Counted from the stretch's first letter, positions 10,447-27,730 are shown. The stretch: 32,000 nt of DNA from Microcystis aeruginosa NIES-843 (GCF_000010625.1 NC_010296.1:4950001-4982000); one strand, 5' to 3'. Notes: generated by a model not told the origin, from the sequence alone. Numbers and translations are program-made.

Positions 10447-11343
10447 TCATTCCGAGATTTCGATCGAACTAACCGATCTTTGCCAACGTTTTTTCCAGTG
10501 GCTAGTCGGTTCTAAGTCACAGAGAGCCTGTTCGCTGCGACGACGTTGTATAATCACTTCGGCCGGGTCGGTTAAAGTCGCGTCTCGATAGGGAATAGCG
10601 GCCTTAGTTTGCAGATGTTCCCTTTCCTGTACCGATAGAGATGGGGGTAAGGACAAAAAACTGGCTATTGTCCCTGGCGATCGCCGCCCGACGCTATCGG
10701 TGGCCCCAATCTGCAATCCTGCTAATTGTAAAGCCCTTCGCACCGAGGCAGCACAGGAATAGGTGACTAAATAACCCGTCGGACTCAGGCATTTCGCCAC
10801 TAAAGCTAAAAACTCCACCGTCCACAGTTGCGGACATTTACCCGGGGAAAAGGGGTCGAGAAAAATTGCCTCCGCTTGAAAACCCGCGTCAATCACCTTG
10901 GTTATCGTCTGTCGCGCATCCCCGATTAACAGTTTAGCCGTGAGATTAGGCAGGTCTAGCCGGTGATTATGGGCAAAATCATTTAAATATTCGGGAATTG
11001 GTTGACTCCAACTATTTAAGAGATTTTCTCTAATAGCCGCTAGGGGAACCACTCGATCGCTTTCTAAAGCTAATAATTCTACCCGACAATCCCCCCTAAC
11101 TTGCCAAATGGCCGCTAAGGCTGCGGCGCTATTATACCCTAAGCCGTAACAAATGTCAAGAATTTTCAGATTATTGCTCTGGTCTGCTTTGGCTGTCAGA
11201 CGACTAGAGAGGATAAATTTTTTCTCGGCTTCTTCCCTTGCCCCAGAGGTAGAATGATAACATTCGCCGAATTCGGTCGAAAAAAAGGTATAAGAACCAT
11301 CCTCAGTGACTTTTTGCGGGTAGGCTTCGGGGGAGACAAGCAT
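10447..11343 (-). CDS. mnmD: tRNA (mnm5s2U34)-methyltransferase MnmD/MnmC-methyltransferase-domain-like protein
   Basis: The protein has a SAM motif (ILDICYGLGYN) and the signature FLDPFSPGKCPQLWTVEF (compare the MnmC N-domain FLDGFAPAKNPDMW). I prefer the start at MLVSPE (complement of 11341-11343). The track start at 11400 would overlap the upstream gene by 98 nt. Confidence 0.65.
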   Translation of the reverse strand: MLVSPEAYPQKVTEDGSYTFFSTEFGECYHSTSGAREEAEKKFILSSRLTAKADQSNNLKILDICYGLGYNSAAALAAIWQVRGDCRVELLALESDRVVPLAAIRENLLNSWSQPIPEYLNDFAHNHRLDLPNLTAKLLIGDARQTITKVIDAGFQAEAIFLDPFSPGKCPQLWTVEFLALVAKCLSPTGYLVTYSCAASVRRALQLAGLQIGATDSVGRRSPGTIASFLSLPPSLSVQEREHLQTKAAIPYRDATLTDPAEVIIQRRRSEQALCDLEPTSHWKKRWQRSVSSIEISE

Positions 11344-12097
11344 GGTGATGGAGAATGTCTTTGAGATGAATATCGGTTTCCAGCAGGCAAGCGTGACCAC
11401 TATGGGGCAGAATCGTTAATTTTGCCGCGGGTAACTGCTGAATTAGGCGTTTAGCCTCCGCTACCGATGGTAACAGTCGATCTCCTTGACTGGCTATCAC
11501 TAACACCCCCAATTGCAGACATTTTAACTCGCTGGCACTAACCTGAAACCGTTGTAACTGGGATAAACGCCAGCTAATCGTCTTCGGTGGGACGTATTGC
11601 ATGGCTTTGAGGAGAGAGCGGCGATCTTCCCGGGATATGCGACCGAGAGCGGCCAGAAAGGGTAAAATAGTTAGTGCCGAGCTGCCTTGGATGAAATCGG
11701 GCATCATCTGGGTGATACCGATTCCCAAGCTTAAAAGAGGTCTTTGATTAAAAGAAGAAGCAGGGTTAATTAAAATCAGTTTTTTAATTAATTTTGGTGA
11801 TTTTGTCGCTATTTTCAAGGCTAAACAGCCGCCAAAAGACTCACCGCAGAGATAGACTTTTCTCGATTGTCGCTTTAATTCCTGTTCCAATAAAGCGATC
11901 ACGAGGGTGCTTAATTCCTCCCAATCACCGAGATATTGCGGGGAAATCACCAAACAACGTAGATCGAAGTAAGGGGCAAGGTTTTTAATCTGACGATGGT
12001 ATAGTTGGCCGCTGCCATCCATTCCGGGTAAAAATACAAACAGGGGATAATCGGGACGGGGATGACGGGGAATAATCCAACTGACAGGTTGTTCCAT
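11303..12097 (-). CDS. Alpha/beta-fold hydrolase
   Basis: Nucleophile elbow GESFGG, an N-terminal FLPGMDGSG oxyanion region, and a C-terminal SGHACLLE histidine region. The 3' end overlaps the mnmD-like start by 41 nt. Confidence 0.8.
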   Translation of the reverse strand: MEQPVSWIIPRHPRPDYPLFVFLPGMDGSGQLYHRQIKNLAPYFDLRCLVISPQYLGDWEELSTLVIALLEQELKRQSRKVYLCGESFGGCLALKIATKSPKLIKKLILINPASSFNQRPLLSLGIGITQMMPDFIQGSSALTILPFLAALGRISREDRRSLLKAMQYVPPKTISWRLSQLQRFQVSASELKCLQLGVLVIASQGDRLLPSVAEAKRLIQQLPAAKLTILPHSGHACLLETDIHLKDILHHHACLPRSLPAKSH

Positions 12098-12279: not shown

Positions 12280-12879
12280 TTAGGCCGCCGCTAAATTAGC
12301 AGCCACGAAATCCCAATTAACCAACTTAGTTAAAAAGTCGCTGATGTAATCGGGACGACGATTTTGGTAGTCGAGATAATAAGCGTGTTCCCACACATCC
12401 ATAGTTAAGAGGGGAACCTGTCCGGCGGTTAAAGGATTGTCAGCGTTGCCGGTTTTGGTAACTTTGAGAGTACCGTTATCGAGAACCAACCAAGCCCAAC
12501 CGCTACCGAATTGAGTAGCGCCCGCAGTTTTGAAAGCTTCGACAAATTTCTCGAAACTGCCGAAATCTGCCTGAATTTTATCGGCTAAAGCACCGGTAGG
12601 TGCACCGCCACCACCCGGTTTCATGCAGTCCCAATAAAAACTATGATTCCATGCTTGGGCGGCATTGTTGAAAACCCCAGCTTTAGAAGCATCACCGGCA
12701 ACCTTAACGATAACTTCTTCTAAAGAGAGAGCATCGAGTTCCGTATCTTTGACCAAACCGTTATAGTTATTGACATAAGCGGCGTGGTGCTTGTCGTGGT
12801 GGAATTCTAGGGTACTTTTGGTGATGCAAGGCTCTAAGGCAGTGTAATCGTAGGGTAAAGGGGGAAGTGTGTAAGCCAT
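12280..12879 (-). CDS. sodB: Iron superoxide dismutase
   Basis: LPPLPYDYTALEP N-terminus, HHDKHH, the Fe-type AAQAWNHSFYW motif, and the DVWEHAYYLDYQNRRPDY signature. Confidence 0.95.
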   Translation of the reverse strand: MAYTLPPLPYDYTALEPCITKSTLEFHHDKHHAAYVNNYNGLVKDTELDALSLEEVIVKVAGDASKAGVFNNAAQAWNHSFYWDCMKPGGGGAPTGALADKIQADFGSFEKFVEAFKTAGATQFGSGWAWLVLDNGTLKVTKTGNADNPLTAGQVPLLTMDVWEHAYYLDYQNRRPDYISDFLTKLVNWDFVAANLAAA

Positions 12880-13323
12880 GTGTTCTCTGTATCCTCTCTT
12901 GAGAGCTTGTTTAAGGTAGTGTTGTTAACCTTTTGTCAGTATTCAGCTTAACCAAGACGAATACCTTTGCAATAAAACTTTACACCCTCAATCATAGCAC
13001 CGAAGGAGACTTGATCAGTGATCACTGATCGATCAGCTTTTTTCTCCCATCTCCCTTCTCCCCCATCACCTCAACTCCCATCGACCATCTCCTAAATCCT
13101 GAGAAGATCACCAAACAATGTTAGAATAATTCCCGTACTGTAGGCGCTTGCAGATTCTTGTGGGCGTGGCAGGGCAGGCGAAAAACGATTCCGTTCGGAA
13201 TTAGACCAAAAAAGCTCCACTGGAAACAGCAGTAGATTTTATCTCACTGGGTTGACCGGTTGGCACTTCGTCAAATTACGGATCAATACAAAATTATCAT
13301 TTACAGATCTTTCTTGGTAACTT

Positions 13324-13518
13324 ATGGCACAGCGTACACGCTTAGGTGAAATCCTTCGTCCCCTCAACTCGGAATATGGTAAAGTTTCTCCCGGTTGGGG
13401 AACTACCTTGCTGATGGGAGTTTTTATGGCTCTGTTTTTAGTCTTTTTGCTGATTATTTTACAGATCTACAACTCCTCCCTAATTTTAGAAGGATTTAAT
13501 GTAGATTGGGGTCAGTAA
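13324..13518 (+). CDS. psbH: Photosystem II reaction centre protein H
   Basis: The 64-aa product [52 protein letters not shown] matches the PsbH pattern along its full length. Confidence 0.95.
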
Positions 13519-13578
13519 GCAGATTCCAACAATCTCGTCGCCATTTTTGGCGGCAGAATTATCCCTCGGACTTTGGCA

Positions 13579-13608
13579 GGTGGGTTATTGCCCACCGCGA
13601 GTTTTTTA
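13579..13608 (+). terminator. Possible terminator hairpin after psbH
   Basis: The hairpin is ggtggg-ttattg-cccacc, followed by gcgag and a T6 run. The T run is 5 nt from the stem, so the structure is not canonical. Confidence 0.3.
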
Positions 13609-13622
13609 TTAGGAGCAAAAAA

Positions 13623-13871
13623 ATGAATATTTTTGGGATTGGATTACCGGAAATGGGGTTAATTCTCTTGATTGCCCTGCTAGTTTTCGGACCGAAAAAA
13701 TTACCAGAAATCGGTCGCAGTTTAGGCAAAACGATTCGAGGATTTCAAGAAGCATCCAAGGAATTTGAAAGTGAATTTAAGCGAGAGGCCGAGCAGATTG
13801 AAGACTCGGTAAAAATCAAAGCTGAATTAGAGGAAAGTCAATCTCCTAGCGATCAAACTCGTTCCAGTTAA
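13623..13871 (+). CDS. tatA: Twin-arginine translocase subunit TatA/E
   Basis: MNIFGIGLPEMGLILLIALLVFGPKKLPEIGRSLGKTIRGFQEA forms the TatA TM-hinge-amphipathic helix. AGGAG lies 8 nt upstream of this ATG. The track start at 13506 adds 39 non-homologous residues. Confidence 0.9.
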   Translation: MNIFGIGLPEMGLILLIALLVFGPKKLPEIGRSLGKTIRGFQEASKEFESEFKREAEQIEDSVKIKAELEESQSPSDQTRSS

Positions 13872-16902: not shown

Positions 16903-17304
16903 CTAACCCATCAGGATCACCGTGTCGATGACGTGGATCACGCCATTATCTGCCTCGATATTACCCGCGACCACCGTGGCATTTTTCACCTCAAAACCTT
17001 CGCTACAATCGACGGGAATCGGTGAACCCTCTAGAGAAGTCACTACAGCCAATTTTGCCAAATCTTCCTGCATATATTTGCCCGCAACGACGTGATAGGT
17101 GAGAATTCGGGTTAATTGGGGGATATTCTGCACTAGGGTTGTAATCGTCCCGGGGGGCAATTTGGCAAAAGCTTCATCGGTGGGGGCAAAAACCGTGAAC
17201 GGGCCAGGACTTTTTAGGGCATCCACAAGATTAGCGGCTTGTACCGCCGTCACTAGAGTTTTAAAATTATCGGCACTGACCGCAATATCGACAATATCTG
17301 CCAT
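16903..17304 (-). CDS. Fasciclin (FAS1) domain protein
   Basis: [15 protein letters not shown] (H1 box), the YHVV motif and [11 protein letters not shown] (H2 box). The product is 133 aa. Confidence 0.85.
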
Positions 17305-17387
17305 AAACTTGACTCGATCCTGAAAAAAATCATCTATTTCAGATTTTAAACTTAATCTTGTCCCAAAGATCGTTCTAGGGAAGTAAT

Positions 17388-17510
17388 GTGGGGTGTGGGG
17401 TGTAGGGTGTGGGGTGTAGGGTGTAGGGTGTGGGGAGTTTTCTCAGTGAACTGATAACTGATAACTGATAACTGATAACTGATAACTGATAACTGATAAC
17501 TGATAACTGA
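17388..17510. repeat. Composite microsatellite: (GGGGTGT)~7 then GGGGAG linker then (ATAACTG)~9
   Basis: gtggggtgtggggtgtagggtgtggggtgtagggtgtagggtgtggggag...ctgataactg, with the ATAACTG unit repeated about nine times. Confidence 0.95.
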
Positions 17511-18024
17511 CTTCTAACCCCATGTTGGACAAAGATAAGCAAAAATTATTTATTGACTCCAAAAACTTGAGAATATTTAAATTAACATTCCGCAATATTT
17601 ACAAATTCTTAAGAATTAATTGAGAAAGATTTTTATTTAACAACGATGTTATCATGGTTACAGCGATTTTGCTGAATTTCATGATGGGTTATTCTGTGCT
17701 TTTTTGGGTAGCAATGGTTGAAACCCTTGCCACACCTACAGGGTGATCCTAATTAAGACGGGTAAATCAGTCAATTTCACGGGCAACGATGATCTTTTTT
17801 TTGTGTAGTTTTATTGCAAAGAAAAAGTTTTTTTGACAAAAAGCACAAAGTATGATATGTCTGCCAAGGTATTTCTGGCTGCGAGTAATTATTGCAGAGT
17901 TAGGTCAAAATCAGGGGATTTGCTGTTTCCAAGTCAAGAAATACAGAAAAGCAGCAATTCGATCGAGAAACCGATAAAAACAGCCTAGACTAGAAAAAGA
18001 ATCCTCTATCCTGACAGCTATCCT

Positions 18025-18981
18025 GTGGAGATTACTTTTTTAGGAACCAGTTCTGGGGTTCCCACTCGTTCCCGTAATGTCTCTAGTATCGCCCTTCGTT
18101 TGCCGCAACGGGCGGAAATATGGCTGTTTGACTGTGGAGAAGGAACTCAACACCAGTTACTGCGTAGCGACCTGAAAAGTTCCCAAATCCGACGCATTTT
18201 TATCACCCATATGCACGGGGATCATATCTTTGGTTTAATGGGATTGTTAGCCAGTATCGGATTAGCCGGTTCTGCTCAGGATATTGACATCTACGGACCC
18301 CCCGGACTAGGGGACTATCTGCGTGCTTGTGCTAAGTATTCCTATACTAATTTAGCCAATCGGGTGCGTGTCCATGCCATTTCCCCTGGCATACTCTACG
18401 AAGATGAAGAATTTACCGTCTCCTGTCAGCTATTAAAACATCGTATTCCCGCCCACGGTTATCGCATCGCCGAAAAAGACCGTCCTGGACGTTTTGATGT
18501 GGAAAAAGCCAACGCTTTAGGTATTCCCCCCGGACCAATTTACGGCAAGCTGAAAAAAGGGGAAACTGTCACCCTTCCCGATGGCAGCAAAATTCGCGGT
18601 CAGTCCCTCTGCGGAGAAACGGAAATCGGCCGTAAAATTGCCTATTGTACCGATACTATTTTCTGTGAAGGTTCGATCGAATTGGCACAGAATGCAGATG
18701 TGCTAATTCATGAGGCGACTTTTGCACACCAAGATGCCGGGTTAGCCTTTGAAAGTGTTCACTCCACTTCGACGATGGCAGCCCAAGTGGCCTTGGCAGC
18801 CCAGGTAAAATTGTTATTAATGACCCATTTTAGTCCCCGTTATCTACCGGGTAATTCTCTGGATATTTCCAATCTGTTAGAGGAAGCGCGGGCGATTTTT
18901 CCTAACACTAAATTAGCCTACGATTTCCTCACCTACGAAGTCCCCCGCAACCGTCAAGAAATGGCCTTAGGAGTTAAATAA
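18025..18981 (+). CDS. rnz: Ribonuclease Z (tRNA 3' endonuclease, metallo-beta-lactamase fold)
   Basis: GTG start. The N-terminus is MEITFLGTSSGVPT. The HxHxDH motif (THMHGDHIFG) and a C-terminal HFSPRY motif are present. The product is 318 aa. Confidence 0.9.
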   Translation: MEITFLGTSSGVPTRSRNVSSIALRLPQRAEIWLFDCGEGTQHQLLRSDLKSSQIRRIFITHMHGDHIFGLMGLLASIGLAGSAQDIDIYGPPGLGDYLRACAKYSYTNLANRVRVHAISPGILYEDEEFTVSCQLLKHRIPAHGYRIAEKDRPGRFDVEKANALGIPPGPIYGKLKKGETVTLPDGSKIRGQSLCGETEIGRKIAYCTDTIFCEGSIELAQNADVLIHEATFAHQDAGLAFESVHSTSTMAAQVALAAQVKLLLMTHFSPRYLPGNSLDISNLLEEARAIFPNTKLAYDFLTYEVPRNRQEMALGVK

Positions 18982-18983
18982 TT

Positions 18984-21900
18984 ATGCCAGCAGCAGTAGA
19001 AGAAAAAAGCATGGTTCCCACGGTTTTAGTGGGTATTGGTGGCACGGGTAACGAAATTTTATCGCGATTGCGTCGCTTAATCGAGGAAAGTTATGGCAGT
19101 TTGAGCAATTTTCCGATTGTCAGTTTTTTGGTGGTTGACACGGATAAGGATTATAAAATCAGTAATCCTGAAGCTGCCGGCAGTGCTTTTAAAGATAACG
19201 AGAAACACTGGTCCCGGGTGAGTGGAAAACAGGTACAGGAGATGGTATCTGACATGGATAGATATCCCTGGATTAATAGTTGGTTTCCCCCGGAATTAGA
19301 GAGAAATATTACTTCCCTGGAAGCGGGAGCGGGACAAATTCGCGCCTGTGGCCGTTTTGCTTTATTTTGTAATTATCATGAGATCCAAAGGAAATTTCTG
19401 GACGCGGTGAGACGGGTAAAAGGACAAGAAAACTTTATGCTTGATCGCTATGGAATTAAAGTTAATAATACTGCTATTAATGTCTTTACTACGGGGTCTT
19501 TAAACGGTGGTACGGGTAGCGGAATGTTAATCGATATAGGCTACTGTATCCGTAATTGGTTGCGAGGGGAAAGTAGTCCTTTGAGTACGGCAATTGTTCC
19601 CACTCCTGAAGCATTTGCGGGGATTAGTGTCGGCGATCGAGTTTTGGCTAATGGTTACGCTGCCTTGATGGAATTAAATTACTTTTCTGACTACAGAACC
19701 GAATATCATCAACAGTTTAGCAGCGGTTTAGTCGATGAAGTTGTTAGTAAATTACCCCCCTTTGATTTTACCTATTTAGTGGGGACAAAAAACGGCGAAG
19801 GTGATTTTAAACTCGGTCAAATTCGGGAAATGATCGCCCAAAATATCTTCCTAGATATGACCTCTGATTTTGCACCCCATAAGCGTTCCATTAGAGATAA
19901 TATTAAGGGTTCTTGGGCGCAAGCTGACCCTGGGGGTCGCGGTTATCCTAAGCAATTTATGAGTTTTGGGCTATCAACTATTGAAATTCCTATTGCCCAA
20001 ATTCGGGCCTCTTTATCGGAACGTTTAGCCAAAGATTTAATTAATTGGTGGCTGAATGATTCCGTGATTTTACCCGCTCAAATGTTGGACTTAGTAAGAG
20101 GTGATATCCTCAAAAGAATGCGCTTGAGCGAAGTGGAATTAATTATGGATTTATGTGCCGACAAGGATCGCTCTTTAATTGCCATAATCTCCCAATGGAC
20201 TAACGAAACTCGTCAGGAAATCAATCAAGATAATTGGCTATCCTGTACCAAACAGGGTGTTAATATTTTAGGTAATGAACAGGGAAAAATCCTGCAATTT
20301 ATTAATGATTATTTAACGCCAAGAGTCGAGGAATTTAAACGCAATCATTTACTAGAATTAAGTCCCGATGAACGGCTGCACGGCGATTACCTGAAAAAGA
20401 TTTATAGTAACCGGGATGAAATTATTCAACGGGGTAAAAAGTCCCTAGAAATGGAGTTTTATAATATCCTTGAAGATCGAAACCGTGGAGTAAAATTTGC
20501 CGAGAGTTTTATTGTTTCAGTACGACAAATCTTCACCGACATAGCAGAAAAATTCCGTCGCGATCAAGAACAGGTTTGGAGTCAAAACGAAAGTAAACGT
20601 CAACGAGAATATGATACAGCCTTAGCAGAAATTAATGATCTGAAAGATAAAATTCATATCTCGAAAAAAGATAAGATGGAAGAATATTGTGAACAAGCTT
20701 TAACGGGATTGGAAGGTCATTTAATGGCCAATATTCAACGAAAAACCAGAGGTGCAGGAGTAGAGGTTATTAATCGTTTACTGGAACATCTCAATCAATT
20801 AGAAAGCCGTTTTAATCGCTTTCGTCAGAAATTAATTCAAAGTCGCAATCTATTTAATCTCCAAGCTAATCAACAGATCGATAGTGCCGATGCTTTGTTG
20901 ATTAATGGGATTAAATTATTTGACAGACAAGAATTAAATGGTCTTTATCAAGACTTTATCGAACAATTTGCCTCCGGGATTGTCGGCAGCAAAAATGCCT
21001 ACGATACAGGTATGGATAACCTTTGTTTACCCCTCTCAGAAGAGATTTTAAAGCAATCTAGCCCCCTCTGGAAAGAAACGCGCCGCGCCGATGAAAATAT
21101 GCGTTTATTTGACATCACCGAGATTGCCGATATTCGTCAAGGAGATTTTCAACAAGTTATCCTAAATCAAGCTAATCAACTCCTACAAAATGCTCCCGCT
21201 AGTAGTCAAATTCAGCAGGAATTAGCAGCTTGTGATCGCTTGTTAAAAATTTATAACAACGATGCCGAGATTATCAATAATCTTCGCATTGCCTACCAAA
21301 AATCGCGACCCCTAATTATGCTTAATCCTGCGGTTTTGCGGGGAAAAGATGCTGGTTTTACGCCCCAATTAAATCAAAATGTTGCCCTGATTGGAGGAAG
21401 AAATACCAGTAACCCAGCAGCCCAAAAAATTATTCCGAAACTGCGGGAATTTATTGCAAACGAAGACGATATTAAACCCTTGGGAGACGTGGAAAAACAT
21501 CGTCTTGTCTTCGTGCAGGAAATTGGCGGTTTTTCCCTACGCTGTCTCGAGGGAATGAGAGAGTTGCGGCAATCCTATCAAGACTGGAAAGGAGAATTTA
21601 TTCTCGCTAAACGCGCTCAACAAATGGGTGAAAATCGCGATTTACCCATCCCCGTGCATATCCAAAAGGAACCTCCTTTCTGGGATGTTTTTCCCGAAGA
21701 TCCGAGTATTTATCAATTGGTGGTGACTGCCCGGGCTTTAAAAGTGCTTTTTCCAGAAGTCAATCGAGTCACTAATGAGAAAACAATTCGCTATGAAATT
21801 AAAACCGCAACGGGATTAAAAAAAGTCGATATCGCCACCAGTTGGGAAGATGCGGTACAGGTGTTAGAAGTAAAAGCTTGTCGCGAAGATAAGGAAAAAA

Positions 21901-22220
21901 TTCAAAGTCAGGTGACAGCTAAGTTACAGGCTGCAGCCACCCCCGAGAAAAAACAAGCTTTGTATCGGACTTTCATTGAATATTTACAACAACGTTCCGA
22001 GGAGTTGACAGGAGGAAAAGATAGTACAGAATATAAACGGGAAGATGCAATTATTTTGCAGTTAATCGATAACTATAAGTTGGATAGCGGTGGAGAAATT
22101 CCTCTTTCTTCGGTGACGGAAGTGGTTAACCCAGCTTTAATTATCTGCGGTAATTGTGGACACAAAAACCCGCCCTCGTCTAATTTTTGTTCTAAGTGTG
22201 GGGCAAAATTAGTTAAGTAG
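18984..22220 (+). CDS. Large tubulin/FtsZ-superfamily (tubulin-like) GTPase-domain protein with a helical middle region and C-terminal zinc ribbon
   Basis: VLVGIGGTGN (aa 14-23, T1 loop), GAGQIRACG (aa 115-123, compare tubulin T3 GAGNNWAKG) and GSLNGGTGSG (aa 171-180, compare the tubulin signature GGGTGSG). The C-terminal zinc ribbon is C1055-x2-C-x10-C-x2-C1072. GGAG lies about 11 nt upstream of the ATG, which sits 2 nt after the rnz stop. Confidence 0.8.
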   Translation: MPAAVEEKSMVPTVLVGIGGTGNEILSRLRRLIEESYGSLSNFPIVSFLVVDTDKDYKISNPEAAGSAFKDNEKHWSRVSGKQVQEMVSDMDRYPWINSWFPPELERNITSLEAGAGQIRACGRFALFCNYHEIQRKFLDAVRRVKGQENFMLDRYGIKVNNTAINVFTTGSLNGGTGSGMLIDIGYCIRNWLRGESSPLSTAIVPTPEAFAGISVGDRVLANGYAALMELNYFSDYRTEYHQQFSSGLVDEVVSKLPPFDFTYLVGTKNGEGDFKLGQIREMIAQNIFLDMTSDFAPHKRSIRDNIKGSWAQADPGGRGYPKQFMSFGLSTIEIPIAQIRASLSERLAKDLINWWLNDSVILPAQMLDLVRGDILKRMRLSEVELIMDLCADKDRSLIAIISQWTNETRQEINQDNWLSCTKQGVNILGNEQGKILQFINDYLTPRVEEFKRNHLLELSPDERLHGDYLKKIYSNRDEIIQRGKKSLEMEFYNILEDRNRGVKFAESFIVSVRQIFTDIAEKFRRDQEQVWSQNESKRQREYDTALAEINDLKDKIHISKKDKMEEYCEQALTGLEGHLMANIQRKTRGAGVEVINRLLEHLNQLESRFNRFRQKLIQSRNLFNLQANQQIDSADALLINGIKLFDRQELNGLYQDFIEQFASGIVGSKNAYDTGMDNLCLPLSEEILKQSSPLWKETRRADENMRLFDITEIADIRQGDFQQVILNQANQLLQNAPASSQIQQELAACDRLLKIYNNDAEIINNLRIAYQKSRPLIMLNPAVLRGKDAGFTPQLNQNVALIGGRNTSNPAAQKIIPKLREFIANEDDIKPLGDVEKHRLVFVQEIGGFSLRCLEGMRELRQSYQDWKGEFILAKRAQQMGENRDLPIPVHIQKEPPFWDVFPEDPSIYQLVVTARALKVLFPEVNRVTNEKTIRYEIKTATGLKKVDIATSWEDAVQVLEVKACREDKEKIQSQVTAKLQAAATPEKKQALYRTFIEYLQQRSEELTGGKDSTEYKREDAIILQLIDNYKLDSGGEIPLSSVTEVVNPALIICGNCGHKNPPSSNFCSKCGAKLVK

Positions 22221-22239
22221 AAATATAGATTTTGGGTTT

Positions 22240-22454
22240 GATCCCCCCTGCCCCCCTTGATAAGGGAGGTGCCGATAGGCGGGGGGATCTACCTTGATAA
22301 GGGGGGTGCCGATAGGCGGGGGGATCTACCTTGATAAGGGGGGTGCCGATAGGCGGGGGGATCCGCCTTGATAAGGGGGGTGCCGATAGGCGGGGGGATC
22401 CGCCTTGATAAGGGGGGTGCCGATAGGCGGGGGGATCCGCCTTGATAAGGGGGG
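22240..22454 (+). repeat. 37-bp spacerless tandem repeat, ~5.8 copies (GGGGGGATCYRCCTTGATAAGGGGGGTGCCGATAGGC)
   Basis: Full units lie at 22281-22317, 22318-22354, 22355-22391 and 22392-22428, with partial units at both ends. The first two full units carry TA and the last two carry CG at the variable dinucleotide. Each unit contains a CCTT-GATA-AGG hairpin core flanked by G6 runs. Confidence 0.95.
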
Positions 22455-22660
22455 AATCTGACAATTTTTAACACCTACCTAATTTAACAGATAATTTGGG
22501 GGTGTTAGCTGGACTAACATCCCCCACAATGAAAATTTTCGGGAAAAATTGCCTAATAGCGAAAAAACTGGATTATAATAAGGTCTTTACTCAAGATTTT
22601 TGCTAACCGCTAACTGCCATAAAACCCAATCAAGACCCCTGTTTATCGAGAGAAAAACCA

Positions 22661-23587
22661 ATGGTAGCCACTTTAAAAGGACGAGATGTTTTAAGAATAA
22701 CCGACATGAGTAGCGAAGAAATCAGCGCCCTACTCAATCTATCGGCACAGCTTAAAGCTGGCACTCTTAACCCTAGCTGCAAAAAAGTCTTAGGATTGCT
22801 ATTTTATAAAGCTTCCACCAGGACCAGGGTTTCCTTTACCGTCGCCATGTACCAGTTAGGGGGACAGGTGATCGATCTTAATCCCAGTGTAACCCAAGTG
22901 GGGCGCGGGGAGCCCTTAGCCGATACAGCCCGGGTACTCGATCGCTATCTCGATATTCTCGCGGTTCGCACCTTTAAACAAGAGGATTTAGAAGCTTTTG
23001 CCAATTACTCGCGCATCCCGATTATCAACGCTTTAACGGATTTAGAACATCCCTGCCAGATATTAGCCGATTTACAGACTATCCAAGAGACTTTTCAGAC
23101 TTTACGGGGAATTAACCTCACCTATGTGGGGGATGGTAATAATGTCGCTAATTCTCTCCTCTTGGGGGGCGCTTTGATGGGGTTAAATGTGCGAGTTGCC
23201 TCCCCCGCAAACTATCAACCAGATGGGGAAATTGTCGCCAGCGCCAAGGCTATTGGCGAGAAAACTGGTAGTAAAATCTTAATTACCGACGATCCCGTTA
23301 CCGCAGTAAAAGACTCTCAGGTGGTCTATACTGATGTCTGGGCAAGTATGGGACAAGAAAGCCTCGCTGATGCCCGAATTCCCATTTTTCAGCCCTACCA
23401 AGTCAACGAACAGCTAATGAGTCACGCTGACAAAGACGCGATTATTCTCCATTGTTTACCTGCTCACCGGGGCGAAGAAATTACCGACGGGGCGATCGAG
23501 GGTGTACAATCAAAAGTCTGGGAACAAGCGGAAAATCGGATGCACGCCCAAAAAGCTTTAATGGTGAGTTTATTGGGATTAATCTAG
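22661..23587 (+). CDS. argF: Ornithine carbamoyltransferase
   Basis: STRTR carbamoyl-phosphate motif, HPCQ, DVWASMG, and the HCLPAHRGEE ornithine-binding motif. The product is 308 aa. Confidence 0.95.
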   Translation: MVATLKGRDVLRITDMSSEEISALLNLSAQLKAGTLNPSCKKVLGLLFYKASTRTRVSFTVAMYQLGGQVIDLNPSVTQVGRGEPLADTARVLDRYLDILAVRTFKQEDLEAFANYSRIPIINALTDLEHPCQILADLQTIQETFQTLRGINLTYVGDGNNVANSLLLGGALMGLNVRVASPANYQPDGEIVASAKAIGEKTGSKILITDDPVTAVKDSQVVYTDVWASMGQESLADARIPIFQPYQVNEQLMSHADKDAIILHCLPAHRGEEITDGAIEGVQSKVWEQAENRMHAQKALMVSLLGLI

Positions 23588-23719: not shown

Positions 23720-24145
23720 ATGTCAGACACCTCCGCAGTTAAAAAATATCTCGCCCATTGGTTTCAATTGGGAAAAAAAGTTATTTGTCCCAAAAACCAA
23801 GCTATGCTATTTCCGCTGCCAATTTTCAATGCTGATCGCTATTCGTCGGAGTTTGAAGATTGTTGGCAAAAAATGCTTGATCCTCAAAGTGGCGATTGTT
23901 ACCTAGAAGGTACTCAACAAACTATCCAAGACTTACTTTCCCCTCAATGGGAATTTCACCCCTGCGCTCGTTGTACTATACCCGTACCAATTGAAGTGCT
24001 GGGCCAATCGGGTTTATCCTGTCCCTGCCATGATTTGAGTAATTGGCCCAATTTAGAATTACCCTTACCCCATTTACCTGTCAATAGTCGAGAAAATCTC
24101 GATCGCATCCGGCAAAGATTGCTAAAAAATTCTCACCCACATTAA
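23720..24145 (+). CDS. Hypothetical protein, Cys-rich (possible CxxC...CxCH metal site)
   Basis: 141-aa ORF with coding-like composition. It has C82-x2-C85 and C101-x-C103-H104. I recognise no family. Confidence 0.55.
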   Translation: MSDTSAVKKYLAHWFQLGKKVICPKNQAMLFPLPIFNADRYSSEFEDCWQKMLDPQSGDCYLEGTQQTIQDLLSPQWEFHPCARCTIPVPIEVLGQSGLSCPCHDLSNWPNLELPLPHLPVNSRENLDRIRQRLLKNSHPH

Positions 24146-27630: not shown

Positions 27631-27730
27631 GCCCCCCTTATTAAGGGGGGATTAAGGGGGGATCCCCCCGCCTATCGGCACCCCCCTTATCAAGGGGGGC
27701 AGGGGGGATCGAACCTAAAATCCATTTTTA
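27631..27730 (-). repeat. Inverted partner of the 37-bp repeat locus (about 2 units plus flank)
   Basis: 27661-27710 is the reverse complement of 22240-22289 with 1 mismatch. Similarity continues, with scattered mismatches, for about 20 nt more into the flank. An upstream variant unit reads gccccccttattaaggggggattaagggggg. Confidence 0.85.

Follow-up and report, generated by a model that had tools for sequence, protein, structure and literature searches.

Which protein is encoded immediately behind the ribonuclease Z gene of Microcystis aeruginosa NIES-843, and do the two genes form a functional unit? We analyzed a window of 32,000 nt (NC_010296.1:4950001-4982000), within which all positions are counted. 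An earlier note on this DNA had described a giant tubulin/FtsZ-superfamily protein coupled to RNase Z, and its statements at the sequence level (open reading frame, motifs, junction, composition, zinc ribbon, and array) were all borne out. The junction consists of the following features.

18025-18981, plus strand: rnz (ribonuclease Z), the upstream gene, with a GTG start codon; full-length match to NCBIfam NF000801 (E=7e-117)
18970-18973, plus strand: Shine-Dalgarno-like GGAG in the final part of the rnz coding sequence, 11-14 nt upstream of the ATG, by direct sequence reading
18984-22220, plus strand: FtsZl1-family gene, MAE_54080 orthologue, encoding a soluble protein of 1078 aa; supported by the ORF, full-length orthologues, and the supplements of PMC2875224

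Both elements of the reported junction, an ATG 2 nt past the rnz stop and a GGAG of its own, can be read in the sequence: the TAA of rnz occupies positions 18979-18981 and, after the 2-nt gap, the ATG begins at 18984. In Microcystis, rnz and the FtsZl1 gene are probably cotranscribed, and coupled translation is likely. The neighbors within the window are housekeeping genes (glgB, rnz, argF, and malQ).

Sequence comparisons identify the gene as the Microcystis orthologue (MAE_54080) of a cyanobacterial FtsZl1 clade, a divergent branch of the tubulin/FtsZ superfamily. FtsZl1 was described computationally as a family of large tubulin/FtsZ-like GTPases by Makarova and Koonin in 2010 (PMC2875224, Biol Direct 5:33), and MAE_54080 (1078 aa) appears as FtsZl1 in their supplementary tables. 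The earlier suggestion of an undescribed system does not hold, since the family, its three-part architecture, and this very gene were all published at that time (PMC2875224). In agreement with the note's statement that no experimentally characterized function is known, our literature search found no experimental characterization of the FtsZl1 family. The size of 1078 aa was confirmed but is not unusual; family members typically have about 1000-1200 aa, and of 4269 representative relatives, the top 150 mostly fall between 950 and 1200 aa. The gene is uninterrupted (3237 nt) in 13 Microcystis genomes. Its dN/dS is 0.07-0.11 for the gene as a whole and drops to 0.03 within the N-domain. Full-length identity among orthologues is 55-98% across cyanobacteria and 55-72% between cyanobacterial orders. 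We observed no transmembrane (TM) segment in the protein (maximum KD19 of 1.14).

The N-terminal third carries the superfamily assignment.

19023-20042, plus strand: tubulin/FtsZ-fold nucleotide-binding domain, aa 14-353 (PF13809 Tubulin_2, Foldseek, dN/dS 0.03)
19032-19052, plus strand: T1 loop GIGGTGN, aa 17-23; G17, G19, G20, T21, and G22 90-100% conserved (109 members)
19326-19355, plus strand: T3-type motif GAGQIRACGR, aa 115-124; G115 99%, A116 92%, R120 100%, and R124 97% conserved (109 members)
19494-19523, plus strand: T4 signature GSLNGGTGSG, aa 171-180; G175-G180 88-100% conserved (109 members)
19893-19928, plus strand: segment R304-D315 (RDNIKGSWAQAD) at the expected T7-loop position; N306 86%, R304 77%, and D315 70% conserved (109 members)

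The three tubulin/FtsZ signatures noted earlier (VLVGIGGTGN at aa 14-23, GAGQIRACG at aa 115-123, and GSLNGGTGSG at aa 171-180) were confirmed far beyond chance, with Pfam Tubulin_2 (PF13809) matching aa 14-353 over model positions 1-355 of 356 (E=1.2e-110). Signature residues are at least 85-100% conserved among 109 diverse family members, and hhalign places GSLNGGTGSG on the GGGTGTG motif of Escherichia coli FtsZ. The 19 best Foldseek matches in a row were CetZ or FtsZ (prob 1.00), and tubulins were also matched (prob 0.94-1.00), in alignments of 220-369 columns; the PF00091 match was below threshold (16 bits versus 33). The profile match and Foldseek thus agree on the proposed placement, including the Tubulin_2 type, with a model that resembles CetZ, FtsZ, and tubulin rather than a generic P-loop or Rossmann domain and with G-box residues conserved family-wide. 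Together, sequence conservation and predicted structure identify the N-domain as a nucleotide-binding domain of the tubulin fold in which the GTP-binding motifs T1-T6 are intact. The check for a T7 loop had the opposite outcome: upon inspection of R304-D315 and its conservation in 109 members, the canonical NxDxxD/E pattern was missing at the expected position. In the AlphaFold2 model, this segment has a pLDDT of <50 and aa 210-335 are of low confidence. The authors of PMC2875224 likewise could not find T6-H7 in FtsZl1, and our Pfam search detected no FtsZ_C or Tubulin_C domain. Without a canonical T7 loop and these domains, polymerization-activated GTP hydrolysis of the FtsZ/tubulin type cannot be assumed.

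Behind the N-domain, four further regions were distinguished.

20286-20891, plus strand: helical stalk of four long helices, aa 435-636 (AlphaFold2 helices; 45% K/E/Q/R/L)
20892-22088, plus strand: family-specific C-terminal alpha/beta domain, aa 637-1035 (separate AlphaFold2 model, pLDDT of 72)
22089-22139, plus strand: flexible variable linker, aa 1036-1052 (pLDDT of <50)
22140-22211, plus strand: C-terminal zinc ribbon CxxC-x10-CxxC, aa 1053-1076 (PF13240, E=1.3e-7)

The middle region, which had been called coiled-coil-like and K/E/Q/R/L-rich, is indeed helical (AlphaFold2 helices 435-455, 468-497, 502-554, and 561-636, with pLDDT of >90) and enriched in these residues (45% in aa 440-640 versus 36% in the whole protein and 28% in the N-domain). 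A coiled coil is not favored, because hydrophobic periodicity at 3.5 residues is no stronger than at 3.6, and we therefore prefer the term helical stalk. In Foldseek, the stalk resembled the MxB stalk and ClyA-type toxins only weakly (prob of ≤0.35). For the C-domain (aa 637-1035), no Foldseek PDB match exceeded a prob of 0.35 and no structural relative was recognized; it is common only to relatives of at least ~32% identity. The linker is Pro-rich in orthologues and varies in length and sequence. The zinc ribbon was upheld by a Pfam Zn_Ribbon_1 match (aa 1055-1076, E=1.3e-7), and its model overlays eL40, NZF, and RanBP2-type fingers at 0.4-1.2 Å. It is present in 87 of 117 full-length orthologues, and the other 30 carry SHOCT or GYF_2 instead behind the same Pro-rich linker. 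This interchangeability suggests an adaptor rather than a dedicated nucleic acid binder, and the nucleic acid binding proposed for the ribbon is unlikely.

Behind the gene lies one further feature that the note had drawn attention to.

22255-22454, no strand assigned: 37-bp tandem array, 5.4 copies with 98% matches (TRF)

The array is present and structured as described (fold z=-4.25). A C-rich arm, which pairs with the array, begins ~20 nt past the FtsZl1 stop codon, and the array could serve as a structured 3' end. However, another copy of the unit occurs on the minus strand at 27661-27691, and copy number at the FtsZl1 site ranges from 0 to 5 among Microcystis strains. The array is a dispersed, strain-variable Microcystis repeat outside the system of the FtsZl1 gene.

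The idea of a coupling to rnz failed outside the genus in a linkage check, with rnz codirectionally adjacent in 12 of 12 Microcystis loci versus 0 of 64 other cyanobacterial loci; in one related MAG, rnz is near the FtsZl1 gene on the opposite strand. Judged by gene order across cyanobacteria, the adjacency is a Microcystis-only accident, and rnz does not count among the conserved partners. The arrangement in most of the other cyanobacteria is a codirectional cluster with a periplasmic binding protein (PBP) gene first, a vWA gene second, and the FtsZl1 gene last. Outside Microcystis, 48 loci offered 3.5 kb or more of upstream sequence. In 36 of them, the FtsZl1 gene comes after one or both of two TM-anchored proteins, a PBP-domain protein and a vWA protein (vWA and Peripla_BP_6 in 24, vWA and PBP_like_2 in 5, PBP only in 6, and vWA only in 1), always directly upstream on the same strand; a quarter lack an adjacent PBP or vWA partner. 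The PBP partner combines a cytoplasmic Cys/His zinc-type module, a single TM helix, and a periplasmic solute-binding domain. Both nonhomologous PBP classes carry this N-terminal module (W-x-C-D-G-x-P-K...C-x-x-C-G-L-P) and TM helix, with conservation of the module at 90% or more across 116 PBP partners. In the vWA partner, TM helices lie at both ends, one N-terminal and others C-terminal, and the sequence carries a DLSGS motif (DxSxS, MIDAS type).

PMC2875224 depicts MAE_54080 as standing alone. We found that Microcystis keeps a PBP orthologue at another locus (sequence clusters of 410 and 147 members named Microcystis), where the gene adjoins an FTR1 permease gene, as at locus L010; an immediately upstream FTR1 was seen in 7 loci and likewise in Microcystis. 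No vWA gene is present at the Microcystis PBP/FTR1 locus, and among the best 120 vWA homologues listed, none bears the name Microcystis and none makes up a large cluster. The vWA gene thus appears to have been lost from Microcystis, and FtsZl1 must be able to function without the vWA protein if so. Comparison of these loci indicates that the cluster was broken up in Microcystis, leaving the FtsZl1 gene 2 nt behind rnz.

On balance, we find it moderately probable that FtsZl1 assembles in the cytoplasm in a GTP-dependent manner and that this assembly is linked to envelope sensor (PBP/vWA) proteins, a mechanism drawn from gene order, topology, and fold. FtsZl1 would bind GTP and self-associate into dimers or polymers on the cytoplasmic side of the membrane. 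There, the PBP and vWA membrane proteins may recruit or regulate it through their cytoplasmic parts (zinc module and loops), so that its assembly state would respond to a periplasmic ligand or to the state of the envelope. Since the vWA and PBP domains are predicted to be periplasmic, any such coupling must cross short cytoplasmic segments. At the C-terminus, the exchangeable module (zinc ribbon, SHOCT, or GYF) may act as a tether or oligomerization handle, and the output could be a membrane-associated scaffold, membrane remodeling, or a signal. The rnz adjacency would merely provide a promoter through read-through cotranscription, without functional meaning.

We regard it as rather unlikely that FtsZl1 is instead an autonomous GTP-polymerizing filament like FtsZ, CetZ, or TubZ, acting in cell shape, thylakoid or carboxysome positioning, or division help, with its membrane-protein neighbors not mechanistically required. 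CetZ and FtsZ are its best structural matches, no part of the protein is more constrained than its intact GTP-binding motifs, Microcystis retains the gene without adjacent partners, and all characterized superfamily members make filaments according to the authors of PMC2875224. Against this stand the missing T7 loop and FtsZ_C/Tubulin_C domains, ~700 extra residues whose stalk is closer to dynamin-type stalks than to any FtsZ accessory, and an order with two membrane-protein genes kept in 75% of loci. That the order persists even where a nonhomologous PBP has taken the place of the other points to a functional link. Furthermore, the FtsZl1 table of PMC2875224 has no Synechocystis or Synechococcus entry, making FtsZl1 unlikely as a core division or shape factor.

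A role in an NTP-dependent conflict (anti-phage or anti-invader) system, in threshold setting or effector assembly, appears improbable. Defence genes are usually patchy in distribution and evolve fast, whereas the FtsZl1 gene is inherited vertically (55-72% identity) under strong purifying selection (dN/dS of about 0.08), and its relatives are rare on phages (1 of 50,697 records) and plasmids (10 of 72,556). PADLOC gave no match for the FtsZl1, vWA, or PBP proteins, and the window neighbors are housekeeping genes. The defence-module idea of the note therefore lacks support in this clade. Its appeal comes from exchangeable terminal adaptors, typical of conflict systems, from Ser/Thr kinases or trypsin-TPR proteins downstream in some cyanobacterial loci, and from the conflict role that Kaur, Burroughs, Iyer, and Aravind proposed in 2020 for tubulin, coiled-coil, and TM-vWA genes (PMC7159879, eLife 9:e52696). 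The tubulin-containing GAP1-N2 subtype in that work was reported only in Firmicutes and Actinobacteria. The DO-GTPase core by which such systems are defined is missing here, in that a check on the GTPase half of the DO-GTPase/GAP1 pair found no conserved P-loop GTPase neighbor, the sole candidate being the PBP_like_2 protein.

It is decidedly improbable that FtsZl1, acting with the membrane-anchored binding protein and in Chroococcales also with the neighboring FTR1, regulates or energizes the uptake of a solute (amino acid, metal, or phosphate-like anion). The conserved neighbor clusters that we identified include no ABC permease or ATPase gene, the FTR1 linkage is restricted to one lineage, and a PBP with its own TM tether and cytoplasmic zinc module resembles a receptor rather than a transporter subunit, although the partner does bear a LivK-type or PstS-type solute-binding domain. 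To our knowledge, no tubulin-fold protein gates transport. A reviewer of PMC2875224 had put forward transport or signaling as an alternative.

Hardly credible is a partnership in which FtsZl1, through an RNA-binding zinc ribbon, would be a scaffold or regulator of tRNA 3' processing by RNase Z: the 2-nt gap and internal GGAG, the fixed arrangement in Microcystis, and the resemblance of the ribbon to that of ribosomal protein eL40 speak for it, but the same finger type matches protein-binding NZF and RanBP2 fingers, SHOCT or GYF_2 replaces it in many orthologues, and the phylogenetic distribution, with no adjacent same-strand rnz in the 64 loci outside Microcystis despite 55-72% protein identity, already contradicts it.

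Among known systems, FtsZ, CetZ, and tubulin share the nucleotide-binding fold of FtsZl1 (Foldseek prob 1.00, target-normalized TM-score of up to 0.49) and the motifs T1 GGTG, T2 DTD, T3 GAG, T4 GGTGSG, T5, and T6 Asn. FtsZl1 differs from them in an identity of only 11-21%, a subthreshold PF00091 match, the absence of a canonical T7 loop and of FtsZ_C/Tubulin_C, and about 700 extra residues; it accompanies division FtsZ and does not replace it (PMC2875224). By analogy, dynamin-like and Mx GTPases also place a long antiparallel helical stalk behind a nucleotide-binding head in a membrane-associated context. Their fold is TRAFAC P-loop rather than tubulin, and the stalk match to MxB, at a prob of only 0.35, is no evidence of homology. 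Like GAP1-N2 DO-GTPase systems, in which tubulin-domain proteins carry coiled coils or alpha-helical domains at the C-terminus and TM proteins have an extracellular vWA domain (PMC7159879), cyanobacterial loci set a tubulin-domain protein with a helical extension beside a multi-TM, outward-facing vWA protein. Unlike those systems, with their DO-GTPase and GAP1 pair, they have a PBP receptor and no conserved P-loop GTPase.

The closest likeness is to the FtsZl1 family itself, with its N-terminal FtsZ-like GTPase domain, long coiled-coil/helical region, mostly helical C-domain, total of about 1000-1100 aa, and T6-H7/T7 elements that are equally hard to recognize. The Microcystis copy differs in lacking an adjacent vWA, kinase, or OmpA gene and, relative to the 2010 description, in its terminal zinc ribbon. 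For the cyanobacterial clade, the steadiest neighbor besides vWA is the TM-anchored PBP protein with a cytoplasmic zinc module, an association that the authors of PMC2875224 regarded as sporadic.

The gene analyzed here encodes a 1078-aa protein of the tubulin/FtsZ-like family FtsZl1 and is orthologous to MAE_54080. It lies between the ribonuclease Z gene rnz and a repeat array as follows:

18025-18981, + strand: rnz, with an end-to-end match to NCBIfam ribonuclease Z (E=7e-117)
18984-22220, + strand: FtsZl1 ORF of 1078 codons, whose ATG is 2 nt past the rnz TAA
22255-22454: 37-bp tandem array of 5.4 copies (five tandem) at the FtsZl1 3' end, with the G/C-rich unit GATAAGGGGGGTGCCGATAGGCGGGGGGATC

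Confirming the reading of these junctions in the earlier note, the ATG following the rnz stop is preceded by a GGAG sequence 11-14 nt upstream, and the array is present 3' of the gene. The closest proteins, among sequences that did not include NIES-843 itself, were from Microcystis aeruginosa and had 97-98% identity and the same length. The gene was intact (3237 nt) in 13 Microcystis genomes, and dN/dS among Microcystis genomes was 0.07-0.11 overall, with values of 0.03 for the N-domain, 0.12 for the stalk (aa 435-636), 0.09 for the C-domain (aa 637-1035), and 0.19 for the tail. Its neighbors in the window are housekeeping genes (glgB, a fasciclin-like gene, rnz, argF, and malQ). No Rfam match was detected across 17300-22700, and promoter-like and terminator-like sites occurred at a frequency equal to chance. 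We also observed a 141-aa ORF (23720-24145, + strand) between argF and malQ that is Cys-rich with CxxC-like pairs close to its C terminus, has no Pfam match, and among 76 FtsZl1 loci was confined to those of Microcystis (8 loci, 94-99% identity). Elsewhere in the window, two minus-strand ORFs (10447-11400, 317 aa; 11303-12097, 264 aa) overlap by ~100 nt, which may reflect one mis-called start codon or a frameshifted gene.

Assignment of the protein to the tubulin/FtsZ superfamily as a Pfam Tubulin_2 type, made in the earlier note from motifs, was borne out by a match to PF13809 of 370.6 bits (cut-off 27; E=1.2e-110) that aligned aa 14-353 with model positions 1-355 of 356. PF00091 reached 16.1 bits, below its cut-off of 33. 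A full-length AlphaFold2 model, built with 39 orthologues in the alignment (mean pLDDT 74, pTM 0.46), contained a confidently modeled Rossmann-like core (aa 10-210), four long helices with pLDDT above 90 (435-455, 468-497, 502-554, and 561-636), and a C-terminal alpha/beta region of moderate confidence; confidence was low for aa 210-335. This architecture of an FtsZ-like domain at the N terminus, a long helical region, and a C-domain fits the description of FtsZl1 in PMC2875224, where the C-domain is mostly helical and the whole protein is about 1000 aa. In Foldseek searches of the PDB, hits 1-19 were all CetZ or FtsZ with a probability of 1.00, followed by tubulins at 0.94-1.00, so that the nearest structures were of the tubulin fold that had been predicted rather than of another fold. 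Alignments spanned 220-369 columns with target-normalized TM-scores of up to 0.49, and some reached 340-369 columns, with aa 210-335 being of low confidence. Searching the PDB by sequence, with the single protein or a 39-sequence profile, recovered only the zinc ribbon against eL40 (E ~0.3-0.5), and hhalign with E. coli FtsZ aligned the S4-T4-H4-S5-T5 core and nothing further, with H7/T7 outside the alignment. The tubulin/FtsZ relationship is thus barely visible to sequence-only methods.

All three glycine-rich motifs initially quoted for the nucleotide-binding loops are present. We computed residue conservation over 109 diverse relatives and found at least 85% conservation of G17, G19, G20, T21, and G22 in T1, D52 and T53 in T2, G115, A116, R120, and R124 in T3, G175-G180 in T4, P208 in T5, and helix H5. 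The T1 GIGGTGN and T4 GGTGSG sequences of FtsZl1 were 88-100% conserved in this set, and N270 at the T6 position was 76% conserved. A check for the T7 catalytic loop had been advised, and the canonical NxDxxD/E is absent from the expected position, where the pattern is RDNIKGSWAQAD, pLDDT is below 50, and only N306 (86%), R304 (77%), and D315 (70%) were conserved among the 109 relatives; these data leave room for a non-canonical T7 equivalent. The authors of the 2010 survey likewise could not identify T6-H7 in FtsZl1 (PMC2875224). We did not detect an FtsZ_C/Tubulin_C activation domain in FtsZl1 by Pfam. An exhaustive HMMER search retrieved 4,269 representative clusters at E<=1e-3. The best 150 of these relatives were mostly 950-1200 aa and had aa ~10-360 in common, often extending into the stalk, and a few of these 150, at 32-41% identity, aligned over the full length.

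Consistent with the K/E/Q/R/L-rich middle region noted from the sequence, these residues constitute 45% of aa 440-640 versus 28% of the N-domain. Within the long helices, heptad (3.5-residue) periodicity did not exceed that of ordinary amphipathic helices, and matches of the stalk to MxB and ClyA-type toxins (Foldseek probability <=0.35) represent analogy and no more. The C-terminal part modeled separately (aa 637-1078) had a pLDDT of 72 and, the zinc ribbon aside, no credible Foldseek neighbor in the PDB. Cas4 matches to aa 925-1007 (NCBIfam and PADLOC; E=0.016-0.06) fell far below cut-offs and were regarded as noise, as were weak Pfam matches to GDH_C, Exo70_N, and others. No TM segment was found in FtsZl1. 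Together, these analyses show that FtsZl1 is soluble, has a tubulin fold in which the GTP-binding loops are intact, and continues into a helical stalk and a unique C-domain.

The proposed C-terminal zinc ribbon is real, with the last 24 residues matching Pfam Zn_Ribbon_1 and the modeled ribbon (aa 1053-1076) superposing on eL40, NZF, and RanBP2-type fingers at 0.4-1.2 A. Its suggested role in binding nucleic acid was not supported by comparison across orthologues. The conserved body of these proteins stops near aa 1035 and is followed by a variable Pro-rich linker, after which 87 of 117 full-length orthologues carry a zinc ribbon and the remainder mostly SHOCT or GYF_2. Because unrelated mini-domains are swapped on a flexible tether, the pattern argues for a generic docking or oligomerization role of the terminal module and against dedicated nucleic-acid binding. 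The ribbon is an exchangeable adaptor, a point that would sharpen experimental work on the protein.

Much of this was in print before our analysis, and FtsZl1 is not the undescribed system it had been taken for. MAE_54080 (NIES-843, 1078 aa) is catalogued as FtsZl1, standing alone, in Additional files 1, 4, and 5 of PMC2875224, which also tabulates a second Microcystis paralogue, MAE_58770, with a vWA neighbor. That study described vertical inheritance of cyanobacterial FtsZl1, reported FtsZl1 operons that also encode vWA proteins, kinases, a GTPase, and OmpA-like proteins, and put forward membrane remodeling as the role (PMC2875224). A 2023 phylogeny equates the FtsZ-like group of the 2010 authors with Pfam Tubulin_2. 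Both the gene and the family, including its architecture, have been known since 2010 by computation, and a Pfam model covers the family. We found no experimental work on FtsZl1 by family name or locus tag; because most subscription journals were outside the search, this absence of papers is not proof.

We examined genomic context at 76 loci with FtsZl1 orthologues of 55-98% identity. Coupling to rnz, put forward in the earlier note, proved specific to Microcystis: rnz was directly upstream on the same strand in 12 of 12 Microcystis loci, and a co-directional adjacent rnz occurred in 0 of 64 others, with one Microcystaceae MAG carrying rnz ~1 kb upstream on the opposite strand. The argF gene was downstream of FtsZl1 also in two non-Microcystis loci (L017 and L071), so this adjacency is older than the one with rnz. 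The 2-nt spacing suggests that rnz and FtsZl1 are likely co-transcribed in Microcystis. A shared function is without comparative support, and the linkage appears incidental, making rnz a red herring for experimental work. The 37-bp array is a dispersed genomic repeat that happens to sit 3' of FtsZl1. Compared with shuffled sequence it is much more strongly folded (z=-4.25), its unit recurs as a single exact copy 5 kb away (27661-27691, minus strand), and copy number at the FtsZl1 site varies from 0 to 5 across Microcystis strains; the repeat is possibly of MITE- or REP-like origin.

Clustering of flanking ORFs revealed two co-directional genes upstream of FtsZl1 outside Microcystis. One encodes a vWA protein of ~300 aa whose vWA domain contains a DLSGS motif and lies between an N-terminal TM helix and C-terminal TM helices. 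The other encodes a periplasmic-binding (PBP) protein of ~540-600 aa with a single TM helix followed by a Peripla_BP_6 domain; in five loci, this slot is occupied by a PBP_like_2 protein (E=7e-31) of an unrelated solute-binding fold class. The arrangements were distributed as follows:

Same-strand partner genes upstream of FtsZl1, for the 48 loci whose upstream sequence extends over at least 3.5 kb
vWA and Peripla_BP_6: 24/48 loci
vWA and PBP_like_2: 5/48 loci
Peripla_BP_6 only: 6/48 loci
vWA only: 1/48 loci
Neither partner: 12/48 loci

The vWA gene was directly upstream in 30 of the 48 informative loci, and a vWA gene in the predicted operon is typical of the FtsZl1 family and not obligatory. 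The PBP association, dismissed as sporadic by the 2010 authors (PMC2875224), was in contrast the most constant one in our analysis. PBP, vWA, kinase, COP23, and trypsin-TPR were the most frequent of the conserved neighbor clusters identified. Both PBP classes share an N-terminal cytoplasmic module of ~45 residues, W-x-C-D-G-x-P-K...H...C-x-x-C-G-L-P, which was at least 90% conserved over 116 PBP partners. No Pfam family matched this Cys/His module in whole-protein searches, and it may constitute an undescribed small domain. Examples of the module (W-x-C-D-G-x-P-K...P-D-C-x-x-C-G-L-P-x-E-A) are encoded at 4416-4560 of L010 (the locus of the nearest relative), 5812-5950 of L029, and 7001-7130 of L077 (the Microcystis PBP locus). 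In Microcoleus, Tychonema, and related Oscillatoriales (L040, L044, L046, L048, L049, L051-L053, L055, and L072), the same strand encodes, 2-6 kb downstream of FtsZl1, multiple paralogues of COP23 (circadian oscillating protein) together with a Trypsin_2-TPR-pilin-like protein.

The Microcystis REARRANGEMENT concerns these two partner genes. The PBP orthologue has been kept in Microcystis (clusters of 410 and 147 members; 55% identity with the protein of L010, 99% of its length being covered), retains the zinc-type module, and is encoded next to an FTR1 permease gene, as in L010. No vWA gene is present in the window or after the PBP gene at its own locus, where a 156-aa ORF is followed by DNA-methylase genes; this ORF was considered as a vWA remnant and showed no similarity to vWA. 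The 120 best vWA matches included no Microcystis homologue, and none of the clusters at 60-66% identity among them was large or named Microcystis. The vWA gene thus appears to be missing from Microcystis. Chroococcopsis, Gloeothece, Thermosynechococcus, and Crocosphaera chwakensis also lack partners at the FtsZl1 locus and carry the PBP gene elsewhere. The constant partner of FtsZl1 is the PBP protein, which is receptor-like, carries a conserved zinc module on the cytoplasmic side, and is kept even when unlinked. This, too, would sharpen experimental work.

Other features of the PBP locus were observed. An FTR1-type iron permease gene lies directly upstream of the PBP gene in Chroococcales (L077 5417-8614; L010 3531-6038; L028, L031-L034, and L037), and in Microcystis (L077) a ferritin-like gene is also directly upstream. 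As a functional clue, the FTR1-PBP linkage is confined to 7 Chroococcales loci and Microcystis, and it could indicate a metal-related ligand or mere local synteny. DNA methyltransferase genes (DNA_methylase and N6_N4_Mtase; L077 9277-12075, minus strand) occupy the place expected for vWA and FtsZl1, and another methylase gene is located just downstream of the L010 cluster (12690-13631, minus strand); the ancestral operon may have been split through insertion of restriction-modification genes. A gene with HTH_VMAP-M9 and NB-ARC/NACHT matches at L077 1-1217, ~6 kb upstream of the PBP gene, encodes a STAND NTPase, a type also present in the conflict systems of Kaur et al.; the intervening genes are unrelated, and its proximity is probably coincidental.

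The conserved gene order joins FtsZl1 to two membrane proteins, both with large domains of predicted periplasmic location and one with the conserved cytoplasmic zinc module. Considering this arrangement, FtsZl1 may self-associate in a GTP-dependent manner on the membrane's inner face, where cytoplasmic segments of the PBP and vWA proteins may recruit or regulate it, and the output would be a scaffold, a remodeling activity, or a signal. As neither a canonical T7 loop nor an activation domain is recognizable, FtsZ-style polymerization-activated hydrolysis cannot be assumed, and a dimer or stalk-mediated assembly is equally possible. We tentatively suggest, as a possibility that we would not yet favor over its negation, that FtsZl1, the zinc-module/TM/PBP protein, and the TM-vWA protein form a trans-envelope machine in which a bound periplasmic ligand would govern how FtsZl1, a T7-less protein of the tubulin fold whose stalk is dynamin-like, assembles with GTP on the membrane's inner face. 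If true, this would be a mode of action that is not known from the tubulin/FtsZ superfamily.

An alternative raised from the outset is that FtsZl1 belongs to a conflict or defense system. For Firmicutes and Actinobacteria, Kaur et al. (PMC7159879, eLife 2020) assigned to GAP1-N2 DO-GTPase conflict systems both tubulin-domain proteins that carry coiled-coil tails and TM proteins bearing an extracellular vWA domain, and the resemblance of FtsZl1 with TM-vWA to these genes is real. We consider this role improbable, since the defining DO-GTPase is absent, with no P-loop GTPase as a conserved FtsZl1 neighbor. Scanning every flanking ORF of 64 loci for Walker-A/NKxD motifs gave chance matches only; the sole positional candidate, which resembled a P-loop GTPase and lies upstream of vWA in L029, L035, and L038, proved to be the PBP_like_2 protein (E=7e-31). 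In PADLOC-DB 2.0, FtsZl1 yielded sub-threshold Cas4 noise (E=0.016), and the vWA and PBP proteins had no match. The housekeeping surroundings in the window and the vertical inheritance and slow evolution of the orthologue further argue against defense, as does the rarity of FtsZl1 relatives on phage records (1 of 50,697) and plasmids (10 of 72,556, mostly large non-mobilizable replicons). Full-length plasmid-borne orthologues of 58-60% identity were observed at NC_010631.1 140574-143888 and NZ_CP060823.1 8573-11677; the hosts of the large plasmids are Nostoc punctiforme and Cylindrospermopsis curvispora, and the otherwise chromosomal gene occasionally resides on secondary replicons.

As a discovery, the find itself matters little, and its value lies in a sharper definition of partners and in the function of a large branch of the tubulin superfamily. 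At least 4,269 clusters at 50% identity make up this branch, which shows strong conservation throughout the cyanobacteria and extends to the bloom-former Microcystis. Whereas the systems of Kaur et al. are defined by a DO-GTPase, cyanobacterial FtsZl1 loci are without a conserved P-loop GTPase neighbor. Relative to canonical FtsZ and tubulin, FtsZl1 neither passes the PF00091 cut-off nor carries a canonical T7 loop, yet it has the same nucleotide-domain fold.
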